Origin: a virus
DNA length: 64,000 nt
Direction: 5' to 3' (one strand)
Virus record (IMG/VR): IMGVR_UViG_2802429139_000001
Below are positions 813-64,000 of the stretch, piece after piece. The notes beneath the pieces are model-generated. The model was not told the origin of the DNA and did not search any database. It worked only from the letters and a program-made list of their open reading frames with translations. Made by a program: the position numbers and the translations under genes. How positions within the stretch are numbered: position 1 is the stretch's first letter; each line of letters starts with the position of its first letter.

Positions 813-1030
813 GTCTCGTCTCGCTTGTCCTAGAGGTGATTTCGTTGGTCGCGATCACGGCAAGGACGCGAGCTAGCGCGCTAGGTGATCATTGGGCGCG
901 CTCCGTTTCGACTGGCTCACGTCACCAACACAACGCACCCCCGCCCGTTCTTTCTATACCGGGTGGCGGGCGGGGGTGTTCAAACATCATCAACAACAAC
1001 CTCTTTCGCAAGGTGCGGAAGGTGCATGCA

Positions 1031-2470
1031 ATGAAAGCGAGAAAACCAATGAACGATACCGACATCATCACCGGTGATGAGGTTACTTTTCACAACAACC
1101 CGCAGATCGTTCTGCCGGAAGGCATTACATACGGCCGCGCCAAGGAGATCCTGGAGCGCATGCAGGATGAGGCCGAGTCGGTGCAGCAGACCAGTCGCAC
1201 CTACCAGTTTCGCCCGTTTGACGGCGCGGTCGCCACCTCTCGGGTGATGAAGCGCATGTTCGGTATCACCATCGGCGCTCCGAGCGGTGGCGGCTTCTTC
1301 TCCCCGCCCGAGCCTCCGGAAACCCGCACGGTGCAGATTTCGGCGACGGAGACTCTGGAGGTTCCGTGGGGCAACGTCTACCTTCCCAGCGTGGACAACA
1401 AGACCGTCGTCCAGGTCGGCGGAAGGCGCGACCGCGACAACGGAATTGTCACGCACGTCAACGTCATCAGTGCGAAGAAGAACGCCAAGATCGCGCGCGA
1501 GTTCCTGGATGCGATCGGTGAGGAGCTGAAAACCAACTCGATCTATCGTGGCAAGGCGATCGTAGGCACCGAGGAGCCGGAGTTCCTGAACCTCGCGACC
1601 ATCGTACCGAGTGAGATCGTCTTCTCCGATGAAGTGATGAGCACACTGGAAGGCACTCTGTGGTTAGTGATTCGGCACCGTAAGGCGCTCAAGGGCGAGG
1701 GTGTGCGCATCAAGCGTGCGCTGCTGTTGGAGGGTCCGTACGGCACCGGGAAGACCTCGGCCGGTCAGCTCACCGCGCTGGAGGCCGTCCAGAACGGTTG
1801 GACGTTCATCGCTGCACGACCGGGCGATGACATCAACGATGTGCTCCGCACGGCCAAGCTGTACCAGCCCGCGGTGGTCTTCATCGAGGATGTGGACAAC
1901 CAGACATCGACCAGCGACGTGGATCAGGTGTCCAAGCTGCTGGAGACCTTCGATGGTGTGACATCCAAGGGGTCCGAGGTCGCACTTCTGATGACTACCA
2001 ACCACTTTGAGCGCATCCATAAGGGTATGCTCCGCCCAGGTCGCATCGATGCGGTGGTGGAGGTCGCGGCACTGGATCGCAACGGTGTTGAGCGTCTAAT
2101 CAAGGCCGTCGTCGCGTCCGAGCGTCTTGCCGAGGACGTGGACTATGACAAGGTCTATGAGGCGATGACCATCCAGCTTGGTGACGGTGTGGTGGTCGGC
2201 TTCTATCCAGCGTTCGTGCGCGAGGCGCTGGAGCGCGCCAAGACGTTCGCCATCGGTCGGCTCAATGGTGGAACCAACTACAAGCTGGACACCACCGATC
2301 TGGTCGGCGCGGCGGTCTCGCTGCACAACCAGCTCAAGGCCCAGTTTGAGGCCGAAGAGGGTATCGCCAGGCCGACGATCGACGATCAGATCCAGGGTCT
2401 CATGAGCGACTTCGAGATCCGGGATTACGACAACGATTACGTCGGTACCTTGAAGCTCAAGAAGAGCTGA
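1031..2470 (+). CDS. Classical-clade AAA+ ATPase with ~230-aa N-terminal domain of unknown function
   Basis: Walker A GPYGTGKT, Walker B VVFIEDVD, second region of homology MTTNHFERIHKGMLRPGRID; start trimmed to ATG 1031 with GGAAGG RBS. Confidence 0.85.
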   Translation: MKARKPMNDTDIITGDEVTFHNNPQIVLPEGITYGRAKEILERMQDEAESVQQTSRTYQFRPFDGAVATSRVMKRMFGITIGAPSGGGFFSPPEPPETRTVQISATETLEVPWGNVYLPSVDNKTVVQVGGRRDRDNGIVTHVNVISAKKNAKIAREFLDAIGEELKTNSIYRGKAIVGTEEPEFLNLATIVPSEIVFSDEVMSTLEGTLWLVIRHRKALKGEGVRIKRALLLEGPYGTGKTSAGQLTALEAVQNGWTFIAARPGDDINDVLRTAKLYQPAVVFIEDVDNQTSTSDVDQVSKLLETFDGVTSKGSEVALLMTTNHFERIHKGMLRPGRIDAVVEVAALDRNGVERLIKAVVASERLAEDVDYDKVYEAMTIQLGDGVVVGFYPAFVREALERAKTFAIGRLNGGTNYKLDTTDLVGAAVSLHNQLKAQFEAEEGIARPTIDDQIQGLMSDFEIRDYDNDYVGTLKLKKS

Positions 2471-2491
2471 TCCGCACCGCAGATACAAAGA

Positions 2492-2527
2492 AGCACCCCC
2501 GAGAGCGAATCTCGGGGGTGCTTCCGT
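2492..2527. terminator. Hairpin GAAGCACCCCCGAG...CTCGGGGGTGCTTC after AAA ATPase gene
   Basis: 14-bp perfect inverted repeat directly after stop codon. Confidence 0.6.
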
Positions 2528-2840
2528 ATCAACACATTTCGCCACTGTGGCGCATCTAGCGCCTGATCATTCTCCCGAATGACACACCGAGCAGAACACC
2601 GAACCCGACCAGTACGCCCAGGGTTGTCAGCAGGGTTCGCGTGGTCATCTCTTCGGCCTCGATCTCCTCCAGGTCGTCACACTCGGGACACCGGCACTTC
2701 TCCCGGTAGTGCGTGCAGTCGCAGGGGCCATCCAGCTCATGGCCAGCGCACGCGCCGGCGCGGTGGTGCGGGTCGCCAAGGTCGTGGTTTTCCAGGTCGT
2801 GGCCCGCACGCGCAGATGTCGGTGAGACCCAGATACTCGG

Positions 2841-3209
2841 TCATCGCTTGCCTCTCCAGCGGCGCACCGTCATGCGGTCGACGCGTGCTGCGCGCTGTGC
2901 GCCATGCTCGCTCAATCCGTCTTCCATCGACAGCAGCGCCACGACGCGCGCGACGGCCATGCCCATGTCGGCGCGGCTCCGCGCGCGCTCCAGCGCTTGC
3001 CCCGCGTCTTCTAGTGTCAGCTCTTCCGCGAGGTACCGCGCCGCGGCCATCATCGCGGCGTCGCGCATCGGATACTCGGCAGGGTCGGCGTAGCGTTCGA
3101 CCAGATCGTTGAACGTGTCCGCGAAACGCACCGACGCTGCGCGAGACAGCTTGAAACCGTTCTCGCGTAGCCATCCGGTCGCGTTGGTGGGAGCTGTTGC
3201 CATGGTCAT
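2841..3209 (-). CDS. Hypothetical protein (122 aa)
   Basis: GGAGGA RBS before ATG at 3209; GC3-rich frame; ends at TGA 2841..2843, with an open coding-like continuation downstream. Confidence 0.6.
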   Translation of the reverse strand: MTMATAPTNATGWLRENGFKLSRAASVRFADTFNDLVERYADPAEYPMRDAAMMAAARYLAEELTLEDAGQALERARSRADMGMAVARVVALLSMEDGLSEHGAQRAARVDRMTVRRWRGKR

Positions 3210-3266: not shown

Positions 3267-4064
3267 CTAGCGCGGCAAACCTAGAGGGTCTACCGAATCA
3301 ATCGGACGGTCCATCGCCGCGGTTAGGCCAGCGCGCGCGCCCTGTTTGAATCCGTCGTCACTGAACTGATCCACCATCGTGTTGACCGCATCCGGATACG
3401 CATCTCGCATCGCGTCGCGAGCGCGCTCACGGTCCGACTTGTACAGCGCGACCACGCCAGCCTTGTTGGCCGCATCACCTTCCTGCTGTTTGATGCGCTC
3501 AGCGATCGACGCTGCGAACCCAATGAGCCAGGATTGACGGTAGACGTGCAGCGATTGCGGCGCTCGCTTATCGCGCGTCATCTGCACCAGGTGGTCCAAC
3601 CGCTCTGCCCGATTCATGGCCGCCCACTCATCCACGGTGGCCGTACGGAACGTCTCTCGTTTCGGCATCTCCACTTTGGCGACCAAGCGTGTCGCCTGTG
3701 GTTGCAATATCTCCCAGAGCATCCTCAGGCGTTCGACATGGTGAGACATGCCGAACACGTGCACGAGCGGCATGTTATTGAGACCAACGGTCTTGCAGTG
3801 CAGCGCCTCCGCGAGGATGGACAGCATGTGTTTCTGCTCGGCCTGATAGGGACCGCGCACCAGTAGCAGCGTGTCGATGGCGTTCGGGATGTCGCTGATG
3901 TCGAGACCGCGCTGGTGTGCGCGCACAGTCGCCAGATCGATGCCGTGTTTGGCGAGCAGCGCGAAGGCGCGTTCCTGAAATGCCTCCTCCTCGGGCGTCC
4001 CAGTCACATCCTCGGCCTGTCGCAACAGCTTTGCGATCTTGTCAACGATCCTGTCGTCAGTCAT
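3267..4064 (-). CDS. DUF2786-like protein (265 aa)
   Basis: N-terminal KIAKLLRQAEDVTGTPEEEAFQERAFALLAKHGIDL resembles DUF2786 signature. Confidence 0.65.
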   Translation of the reverse strand: MTDDRIVDKIAKLLRQAEDVTGTPEEEAFQERAFALLAKHGIDLATVRAHQRGLDISDIPNAIDTLLLVRGPYQAEQKHMLSILAEALHCKTVGLNNMPLVHVFGMSHHVERLRMLWEILQPQATRLVAKVEMPKRETFRTATVDEWAAMNRAERLDHLVQMTRDKRAPQSLHVYRQSWLIGFAASIAERIKQQEGDAANKAGVVALYKSDRERARDAMRDAYPDAVNTMVDQFSDDGFKQGARAGLTAAMDRPIDSVDPLGLPR

Positions 4065-4184
4065 GGGTGTCCCCTGATGTCGCGTTGTCTTGGTAGTTCA
4101 TTCTACCAAAATACTAGTAGACCTCTCTACCATTGTGCTACGGTCGATTGGTCTACCAAACAACGGACGAAAGGGCTGCTGCTC
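4065..4184. promoter_or_regulatory. Divergent promoter/operator region with three palindromes (TTGGTAGTTCATTCTACCAA 4090..4108; GTAGACCTCTCTAC 4116..4134; TTGGTCTACCAA 4149..4160)
   Basis: Half-site TTGGTAGAC / GTCTACCAA recurs here and at 400..509. Confidence 0.55.
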
Positions 4185-62488: not shown

Positions 62489-62538
62489 GCTGACTCTTAA
62501 TCAGCGGGTCTGGGGTTCGAAACCCTGACGGCGCACCA
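62489..62538 (+). tRNA. Partial tRNA-Lys(CTT): anticodon stem-loop to CCA only (attR core), not a complete gene
   Basis: GCTGA-CTCTTAA-TCAGC anticodon arm, T-arm TGGGGTTCGAAACCCTG, acceptor ACGGCGCACCA; no matching 5' acceptor or D-arm. Confidence 0.6.
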
Positions 62539-62837
62539 TGCAAACGCACTGCTCAGGCAGGGTTGTTGTCGTTTCGGAGTGTTTGCTGCCTGTGACAGAT
62601 GTGACCGATGTGACCGAAAGGTCTCCATATTGTCCCCGCGCTGCGGGAGCAGACCCACCACAGCAAACGGCGCGTCGGCGTGACATGTGAGACCGCCGTC
62701 CTAAGGTCGTGCCGTGTCTAATATGCCTCCCGACCCCGATGCATCTGACTCACGCGAGGACGGTGCACCTACCAAAGAGGCCTGTGCCAAGCTCTATCAG
62801 GAAGTGGGTCTGCTGCACGATCAGGTGACAATTTCGG

Positions 62838-63659
62838 TCACGCGGCCTGACTGGCCGTCGTGGTCATGATGGCTTCGTATTCGACGGGGGTCAACCGGCC
62901 GAGGGCGCCTTGGCGGCGACGTCGGTGGTAGGTGCGTTCGATCCAAGTGACGATGGCGATCCGCAGCTCCTCTCGGGTGGCCCAGCGGCGGCGGTCGAGG
63001 ACGTTCTTCTGCAGCAGGCTGAAGAAGCTCTCCATCGCCGCGTTGTCGCCGGCCGCGCCGACACGTCCCATTGAGCCGACCATGCCGTGATGGTGCAGGG
63101 CCTGGACGAACTTTCGACTTCGAAACTGCGACCCTCTGTCCGTGTGAACCACGCAGCCGGCGACCACCCCACGGCGGCCGACCGCGTTGCGCAGCGCGGC
63201 GGTCGCCAGGCGTGACTTCATTCGGGAGTCGATCGAATAACCCACGATGCGGTTGGAGAATGCATCCTTGATCGCGCAGAGGTAGAGCTTGCCATCGCCG
63301 GTGTAATGCTCAGTTATGTCGCTGAGCCACAACATGTTTGGCGTTTCAGCGGTGAAGTCGCGCTGGACCAGATCGTCGTGCACCGGCGGTCCTGGTTTGC
63401 CGTTCTTGCCGCGCTTCTTGCCGAACACGCTCCACAACTGCTGCTGTGAGCAGATGCGCCAGGCGGTGCGCTCGGCCATCGGCTCGCCGGCCTCACGGGC
63501 CTCCTCGACGAGGTAGCGGTAGCCGAACTCGGGGTCCTCGCCGTGCGCGTCGAACAGGGCGTTGGCGCGGTATGCCTCGACGAGTTCGGCATCGGTGATG
63601 GGATTTGCCCGCCAGCGGTAGTAGGGCTGGCGGGCGAGCTTGAGTACCCGGCGCGTCAC
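62838..63659 (-). CDS. IS3-family transposase OrfB (DDE catalytic domain)
   Basis: HTDRGSQFRSRKF ... integrase core. Confidence 0.85.
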   Translation of the reverse strand: MTRRVLKLARQPYYRWRANPITDAELVEAYRANALFDAHGEDPEFGYRYLVEEAREAGEPMAERTAWRICSQQQLWSVFGKKRGKNGKPGPPVHDDLVQRDFTAETPNMLWLSDITEHYTGDGKLYLCAIKDAFSNRIVGYSIDSRMKSRLATAALRNAVGRRGVVAGCVVHTDRGSQFRSRKFVQALHHHGMVGSMGRVGAAGDNAAMESFFSLLQKNVLDRRRWATREELRIAIVTWIERTYHRRRRQGALGRLTPVEYEAIMTTTASQAA

Positions 63660-63691
63660 CGCGACGGGAATCCCGTCGGCGGCGAGCTCAC

Positions 63692-64000
63692 TTACGAGCG
63701 GGTAGACCCTTTTCCCGGCAGATTGGCCTGCGACAAGTACGCCGCTGCCCGCCGTAAGACTTCATTCTCTTGTTCCAACAACCGATTTCGGCGTCGTAGC
63801 TCGCGCAGATCAGCGGAGTCATTGGTGCTCTTACCCGGCTTGGCGCCCTCGTCGACGTCGGCTTGGCGCATCCACTTGGTCAACGTCATCGGGTGCACGC
63901 CGAAATCGGTGGCGATCTGCTCGATCGTCACCCCGTCGTCGCGGTTACGGGCAACGCGGACGACGTCGTCGCGAAATTCACGGGGGTAGGGCCTAGGCAC
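63692..64000 (-). CDS. IS3-family transposase OrfA (HTH + leucine zipper)
   Basis: MPRPYPREFRDDVVRVA...LRELRRRNRLLEQENEVLRRAAAYL. Confidence 0.8.
   Translation of the reverse strand: MPRPYPREFRDDVVRVARNRDDGVTIEQIATDFGVHPMTLTKWMRQADVDEGAKPGKSTNDSADLRELRRRNRLLEQENEVLRRAAAYLSQANLPGKGSTRS

Follow-up and report, generated by a model that had tools for sequence, protein, structure and literature searches.

A one-base insertion very probably explains an apparent in-frame TGA between a helix-turn-helix gene and a Cys/His-rich membrane protein in the Mycobacteroides abscessus prophage prophiFSIL01-1

Programmed recoding, whether prfB-type +1 frameshifting, UGA read-through or selenocysteine insertion, involves two coding segments parted by a frame change or a UGA; such sites recur across homologs and are accompanied by stimulatory signals. 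Ordinary frameshift pseudogenes of prophages and bacteria show a single-base insertion or deletion relative to intact orthologs and an open, coding-like downstream frame, and they reflect a recent event in a dispensable gene, with the allele fixed in a clonal host lineage. Here, we analyzed a 64,000-nucleotide (nt) stretch of viral DNA (the window; IMG/VR record IMGVR_UViG_2802429139_000001), which corresponds, in reverse complement and with 100% identity, to prophage prophiFSIL01-1 (BK061311.1, cluster MabR) of M. abscessus strain 1009. An original prediction, made from the letters of the window, had pointed to a gene that stops at a TGA and is followed in the same frame by a coding-like, Cys-rich and transmembrane (TM) continuation, and had offered TGA read-through, a recently interrupted fusion gene or a tiny membrane peptide gene as explanations. 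The locus resembles programmed recoding in its two coding segments, but differs in that the homologs of the window gene are plain open reading frames (ORFs) and no recoding signals were found at the window site. It shares all the listed traits of ordinary frameshift pseudogenes, from which nothing material separates it; the only oddity is that the remnant shares its frame with the upstream gene and mimics read-through. We conclude, with high confidence, that the window holds a copy of the MabR 'membrane protein' gene (McProf gp90 family) that a frameshift has turned into a pseudogene; it is an ordinary broken gene and not a case of read-through.

The upstream gene (gp87, 2841..3209) encodes a 122-amino-acid helix-turn-helix (HTH) protein, with start ATG 3209 and stop TGA 2843..2841; this gene and all genes and gene parts described below lie on the minus strand of the window unless stated otherwise. 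As originally predicted, the HTH frame continues beyond the TGA as an open, coding-like stretch of 94 sense codons (PSIWVSPTSARAGHDLENHDLGDPHHRAGACAGHELDGPCDCTHYREKCRCPECDDLEEIEAEEMTTRTLLTTLGVLVGFGVLLGVSFGRMIRR), up to TAG 2558..2556, which encodes the segments PSIWVSPTSARAG-HDLENHDLGDPHHRAGACAGHELDGPCDCTHYREKCRCPECDDLEEIEAEE-MTTRTLLTTLGVLVGFGVLLGVSFGRMIRR. The G+C content at the three codon positions of this stretch is 0.67/0.49/0.78, which follows the pattern of the long ORFs of the window (0.61/0.49/0.76). Openness alone is a poor guide: a run of 94 codons has P ∼0.05 from base composition, and at least 94 open codons trail 15 of the 91 long ORFs in the window. We judge the post-TGA stretch to be real coding sequence because of its coding-like codon pattern and its conservation in homologs, not because of its openness. 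Its sole ATG, GTG or TTG start is the ATG at 2648, which was correctly singled out in the original prediction, although it gives 30 amino acids including Met rather than 29.

A start outside the HTH frame had been overlooked, while the lost start and the sole in-frame ATG had otherwise been described correctly. The TGA of the HTH gene is part of an ATGA, so that an ATG (2844..2842) lies one base (−1) off the HTH frame. A Shine-Dalgarno (SD) sequence, GGAGAGG (2851..2857), is placed 6 nt ahead of this ATG, and an equivalent GGAGAGG or GGAGGGG is present in the homologous prophages McProf and prophiFSAT01-1 and in two homologous Logan contigs. ATG 2844..2842 is the true ancestral start of the membrane-protein gene. 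In the window allele, the ORF from this ATG (2737..2844) has 35 codons and reads MTEYLGLTDICACG, followed by the out-of-frame PRPGKPRPWRPAPPRRRVRWP; the predicted truncated product includes ...ICACGPRPGKPR... An exact look-up of this 35-amino-acid product returned zero gene calls on record, which says little either way, given that a gene no longer than the 30-amino-acid remnant was called on 19 contigs. A longer ORF in the same −1 frame (2737..3174, 145 amino acids from an ATG) extends across the entire HTH gene and has its stop, TGA 2737, in common with the 35-codon ORF. It is rich in Arg, Pro and Ala, and is an artefact of the GC frame rather than a gene.

The lesion became apparent on DNA alignment with McProf (from M. 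chelonae) and prophiFSAT01-1, which are ∼90% identical to the window here. The window carries exactly one extra base, after codon 14. At the frameshift site (2801..2805) it reads GGGCC where the homologs read GGTC, the extra base being that at 2803 or 2802; codons 14–15 are thus GGG-C-CAC (2805..2799), whereas each of the five intact homologs examined at the DNA level has GGT CAC. It is a complex change (T to GC), and the run comprises only three G and two C, with no long homopolymer. Deletion of one base restores a 95-amino-acid protein, which is 93–97% identical to its three closest homologs by alignment and 92–96% by tblastn. On this alignment, the first part of the pseudogene (2803..2844) comprises the ancestral ATG and codons 1–14 (MTEYLGLTDICACG), which are shifted by −1 from the HTH frame, and the second part (2556..2801) comprises codons 15–95 and the stop (HDLENH...GRMIRR) in the HTH frame, without a start of its own. 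The second part falls in the HTH frame by coincidence: the overlap shifts the gene by −1, and the insertion shifts it back by +1.

The course of events is as follows: (i) in the prophiFSIL01-1 lineage, GGT-CAC at codons 14–15 became GGG-C-CAC, with a net gain of one base; (ii) ribosomes beginning at ATG 2844 would yield a 35-amino-acid, nonsense-tailed peptide, stopping at 2737; (iii) the 81 codons downstream of the insertion are left without a start; and (iv) with the ATGA overlap (−1) and the insertion (+1) combined, the sequence from His15 onward falls in the HTH frame, which makes the TGA look as if it were in frame. The function of the protein would presumably be lost in the window allele. 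The TGA itself, which the original prediction took for the interruption, is not the lesion, which lies 39–42 nt 3′ of it.

The geometry of the site allows a different outcome, namely a leaky +1 frameshift that rescues the gene. At TGC-GGG-CCA, the P-site tRNA-Gly could slip from GGG to GGC, or tRNA-Gly(GCC) could bind out of frame; the next codon would then be CAC, the exact Gly14–His15 junction would be back, and some full-length protein (predicted peptide ...DICACGHDLENHDLGDPHHR...) would be made. Codon usage is compatible with such a slip, as GGG makes up only 16% of Gly codons and CCA only 17% of Pro codons, and GGC is the major Gly codon (48%), and the downstream frame is fully open with its Cys/His domain unaltered. 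An open downstream frame, however, is equally explained by a recent mutation. Stimulatory elements are missing: there is no suitably spaced internal SD, the A site holds neither a stop nor a very rare codon, and Rfam gives no frameshift element. Nor is the two-frame arrangement conserved, as each of the five intact homologs inspected runs through the site in a single ORF, with GGT CAC. When it occurs spontaneously, +1 slippage at sites of this kind usually stays well under 1%. We consider such a rescue very unlikely. Just as little weight is given to a broken allele that is still alive, in which the slip would supply a low, possibly stress-tunable amount of a MabR-restricted Cys8His6 protein acting, in an anti-sigma-like manner though not itself an anti-sigma factor, as a metal-binding membrane partner that controls the translationally coupled HTH regulator.

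Intact orthologs of the disrupted gene were found in McProf (gp90), prophiFSAT01-1 (gp88), prophiFSQJ01-1 (gp92) and the two Logan contigs, with a single ORF of 91–97 amino acids in each; four IMG/VR contigs also match across residues 1–95. Some of these may stem from the same prophages. The three named orthologs (91–95 amino acids) are 58–97% identical to the repaired window protein. In McProf and prophiFSAT01-1, a single 288-nt 'membrane protein' gene (V/MTEYLGLTDICACGHDLENHDLGDPHHRAGACAGHELDGPCDCTHYREKCRCPECDDLEEIEVEEMTTRTLLTTLGVLVGFG...RR) begins at a GTGA that also contains the HTH stop. In the five loci in which gene order was examined, the membrane-protein gene lies 3′ of the HTH gene and faces an AAA-ATPase gene, and its start overlaps the HTH stop by 4 nt, as ATGA or GTGA, one base off the HTH frame. 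A comparison with homologous prophages had been proposed together with the original prediction, and it revealed that the Cys/TM segment is conserved. Of the interrupted fusion gene proposed there, the recent interruption holds; the fusion does not, as in the intact homologs the two genes are separate and in different frames. The presence of an SD of its own together with the start/stop overlap suggests that translation of the membrane-protein gene may be coupled to that of the HTH gene.

The same comparison bears on read-through or recoding of the TGA, by a near-cognate tRNA or by selenocysteine insertion, which would yield an HTH-Cys-rich-TM fusion of ∼217 amino acids. The two frames do coincide in the window allele, and the TGA is followed by C, a weak termination context known from E. 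coli that counts in favor of read-through. The frames coincide, however, only in the frameshifted lineage. Read-through of the HTH stop would add five codons in McProf and in both Logan contigs, and unrelated wrong-frame sequence in prophiFSAT01-1 and prophiFSQJ01-1; it is not conserved. In the homologs, the TGA does no more than end a gene that is separate from the next, which also argues against selenocysteine. The fusion would swap the invariant Cys11 and Cys13 for 'SARAG'. No selenocysteine insertion sequence (SECIS) or other Rfam element was detected near 2841 at gathering score or at E ≤ 1, and TGA is the commonest stop in the window, ending 27 of the 46 long ORFs with high third-position G+C that served as a proxy gene set. 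Read-through is thus given almost no credence.

Selection on the family was analyzed with the intact copies and the repaired window copy. The ratio of nonsynonymous to synonymous substitution rates (dN/dS) is 0.02–0.13 in the Cys/His domain; for the whole gene it is 0.05–0.13 among close homologs and 0.05–0.40 overall, at dS from 0.1 to ∼1.0. These values show that the parent ORF encodes a real protein and is under strong purifying selection. The private substitutions of the window lineage are mostly synonymous; none of them affects the Cys/His domain, and no additional stop has arisen. With private changes of this kind, the copy must have been under selection until recently, and the frameshift is young. 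The gene is absent from a fifth MabR prophage, prophiFVLQ01-1, which keeps the HTH gene, and it is therefore an accessory gene, dispensable for the prophage. MabR prophages differ in the short interval that separates the AAA-ATPase gene from the HTH operon: prophiFVLQ01-1 has a reverse-strand gene for 62 amino acids in place of the membrane-protein gene (locus L010, 3158..3554), and prophiFSAT01-1 has the membrane-protein gene plus a reverse-strand gene for 62 amino acids (locus L003, 2524..2712). In the two papers on these prophages, the gene is called only 'a membrane protein (gp90)' and the region is 'typically expressed during lysogeny'; the frameshift is mentioned in neither.

If the extra base were a sequencing or assembly artefact, it would be absent from the real genome and the gene would be intact. 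In favor of this reading, BK061311.1 derives from a draft assembly annotated by a third party. The identical GGGCC is present, however, in the independent assembly of another isolate (FSIG01/GCA_900136185.1), and the short, complex change in a run of three G and two C is unlike a homopolymer miscall. Nineteen contigs, all from different isolates and 18 with a length above 200 kb, carry a gene call for the allele-specific 30-amino-acid remnant. The published carriers of prophiFSIL01-1 are 19 UK isolates (PMC9434293, Table 1). The 19 remnant-bearing contigs match the 19 published isolates, and the insertion is taken as real and heritable. We regard it as genuine and fixed in the lineage, with a small residual doubt, and consider an artefact highly unlikely.

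Two small genes have been deposited in the region of the broken gene. The first, gp88 ('hypothetical protein', 2645..2779), starts at a TTG and has 44 codons. Its G+C content by codon position (0.47/0.84/0.73) departs from that of the long ORFs of the window (given above), and gp88 is very likely a spurious wrong-frame call over the conserved Cys/His frame, filling the gap left by the frameshift. The second, gp89 ('membrane protein', 2556..2648), encodes 30 amino acids from the internal ATG (Met66), and is the C-terminal remnant of the broken 95-amino-acid gene. As a functional micro-protein gene, which would be compatible with the frameshift and which corresponds to the tiny membrane peptide gene of the original prediction, gp89 has in its favor a GAGG 8 nt ahead of ATG 2648, a clean TM helix, annotation by the depositors and the presence of the internal ATG in the five closest homologs. 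The intact homologs, however, all read through this ORF as residues 66–95 of a longer protein, the Met is missing in prophiFSQJ01-1, and there is no sign of independent selection. The TM segment evolves fastest, the whole-gene dN/dS being ∼0.3 in distant pairs compared with 0.13 for the Cys/His domain. A micro-protein gene is accordingly a very unlikely reading of gp89.

Some points weigh against the pseudogene reading. A +1 slip at GGG-CCA would rebuild the exact wild-type protein, and the 30-amino-acid TM remnant, with its weak SD, may be translated. The text on McProf RNA-seq is silent on whether gp89 or gp90 belongs to the 16 lysogen-expressed genes. The insertion was checked at base level in one of the 18 other assemblies (FSIG01), the frameshift in the others following from the 30-amino-acid gene call. 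The evidence consists of assemblies rather than reads, and all 19 apparently derive from one UK collection, so that a systematic pipeline error is conceivable. A frameshift pseudogene is nonetheless the reading that we prefer, at the confidence stated at the outset.

The repaired protein combines an N-terminal Cys/His-rich domain with a single TM helix; the original prediction had pointed to a Cys-rich segment and a TM helix in the post-TGA frame. The Cys/His-rich domain (residues 11–55, 2679..2814) is split by the frameshift site. It contains eight Cys and six His, all invariant, within 45 positions, in the motif C11-x-C13-x-H15-x4-H20 ... H26H27 ... C32 ... H35 ... C41-x-C43-x-H45-x4-C50-x-C52-x2-C55, in which the internal repeat unit C-x-C-x-H-x4-[H/C] occurs at residue 11 and again at residue 41. 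The 14 invariant Cys and His residues suggest that the domain probably binds metal, or forms disulfides if it is exported. The N-terminal part is strongly acidic (5 Lys/Arg vs. 18 Asp/Glu), and an acidic linker comes next. The TM helix, assigned by hydropathy (residues 71–89, LLTTLGVLVGFGVLLGVSF, 2577..2633), has a mean Kyte-Doolittle value of 2.18, is followed by the tail GRMIRR with three Arg, and is conserved in McProf gp90, prophiFSAT01-1 gp88 and prophiFSQJ01-1 gp92. The charges on its flanks (one positive and seven negative on the N side, three positive and none negative in the C-terminal tail) would, by the positive-inside rule, orient the protein N-out/C-in, with the Cys/His domain facing outside. 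An AlphaFold2 model, built with three sequences only, has a mean predicted local distance difference test (pLDDT) score of 52, with values below 50 in the Cys/His domain, and is too poor for use.

Searches with the repaired protein and the family alignment gave no matches to Pfam or PADLOC at E ≤ 1, nor to NCBIfam or PDB sequences, and the only PHROGs match of the membrane protein was phrog_23186 (function unknown, E = 0.032). Among 1.84 billion representative proteins, a profile search recovered nothing beyond the family itself, and a word-indexed search of 5.8 billion proteins returned three clusters. By these sequence comparisons, the gene appears to be restricted to MabR prophages, with no detectable relatives elsewhere. 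Matches to the HDLGDPHH motif in Microbacterium, Allomesorhizobium and a metagenome-assembled genome of Erythrobacteraceae were rejected as chance, as they lie in antisense or alternative frames of helicase, transposase and RNase R genes. The chance matches to HDLGDPHHRAG are placed in GC-rich DNA (loci L014, 2501..2590; L015, 2501..2608; and L016, 2501..2533).

Membrane-anchored, zinc-binding anti-sigma factors (ZAS; RsrA/RslA-type) have their genes directly 3′ of a sigma-factor gene, often with an overlap. The membrane protein is like them in architecture, being small, with a Cys/His-rich N-terminal domain and one TM helix, and having a gene that directly follows and overlaps one for an HTH DNA-binding protein. 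It differs from them in that (i) it has no Pfam zf-HC2/ZAS match even at E ≤ 1; (ii) the H-x3-C-x2-C motif is missing, the nearest being H45-x4-C50-x-C52-x2-C55; (iii) its partner is the 122-amino-acid HTH protein, without a sigma-70 r2 or r4 domain match, and not an ECF sigma factor; (iv) the charge bias would put the Cys/His domain outside rather than in the cytoplasm; and (v) neither the inspected distant HTH homologs of other phages nor the HTH gene of prophiFVLQ01-1 has such a partner. The sigma/anti-sigma-like layout is an architectural resemblance only. Bacterial metallothionein-like proteins, such as SmtA-type proteins and mycobacterial MymT, are short and Cys/His-rich, with C-x-C and C-x-H spacings. 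The membrane protein is like them in all of these respects, but it is membrane-anchored and strongly acidic and, as reported above, has no Pfam, NCBIfam or PDB sequence match.

The HTH protein itself matches PHROG 2311 'HTH DNA binding protein' (E = 2.7e-21). In Pfam it gives only weak, sub-threshold HTH_23 and Antiterm matches, and neither sigma-70 r2 nor r4; no NCBIfam match was found, no PADLOC match was found at E ≤ 1, and PDB sequences gave only noise at E > 1. Its structural model has a pLDDT of 66, and the best Foldseek match in the PDB, at E 3.5, is uninformative. Distant homologs (35–50% identity) are present in ∼90 genomes of mycobacteriophages, most of them isolated on M. smegmatis, including TM4 gp38. 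Relatives of the HTH locus were inspected in TM4 (locus L012), Nergal (L011) and the Gordonia phage Finkle (L013). In TM4 (L012, 1471..2132), gp38 is also followed, with a 4-nt overlap, by a small gene, gp39, whose product has 86 amino acids and is acidic, with no Cys and no TM helix. A general two-gene module of an HTH and a membrane protein was rejected, as the genes 3′ of the distant HTH homologs in the inspected relatives are unrelated.

The broken gene is the last of a three-gene operon, which comprises a promoter-like site (4129..4100), the DUF2786/DUF7168 protein gene (gp86, 3267..4064) as first gene of the transcription unit, the HTH gene, with an SD (GGAGGA) 7 nt ahead of its ATG 3209, the membrane-protein gene and a terminator hairpin. 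The intrinsic-terminator-like hairpin (2489..2525, minus strand) has a 16-bp GC-rich stem followed by the T-rich tail TTGTATCT, and lies between the convergent membrane-protein and AAA-ATPase genes. An Rfam scan of the whole window gave zero families at gathering score; sub-threshold microRNA and small-RNA matches at 2488–2526 coincide with the hairpin. The convergent 'AAA-ATPase' gene (836..2470, plus strand) matches Pfam AAA and nSTAND3 and, weakly, IetA in PADLOC (E = 2.9e-5), so that its product may be a STAND/AAA NTPase of the defence type; the start annotated for this gene varies among records (541 vs. 473 amino acids). The 45-bp attL core of prophiFSIL01-1 lies at 62491..62535, and the final 1.46 kb of the window (62536..64000), beyond attL, is host chromosome. 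ARAGORN found no complete tRNA in the window, although the att core resembles a tRNA 3′ end; the intact tRNA presumably sits on the attR side, outside the window.

The finding is ordinary in kind and of modest practical value. For BK061311.1, it means that gp88 and gp89 are to be replaced by one pseudogene orthologous to McProf gp90. It also calls for caution, as a 4-nt start/stop overlap together with a +1 indel can imitate stop-codon read-through. For McProf, a prophage-dependent whiB7 and antibiotic-resistance phenotype has been reported. The MabR prophages have a lineage-restricted Cys/His-rich membrane protein that is dispensable for prophage maintenance, and the 19 clinical M. abscessus isolates would be natural knock-outs of it, comparable with McProf or prophiFSAT01-1 lysogens.

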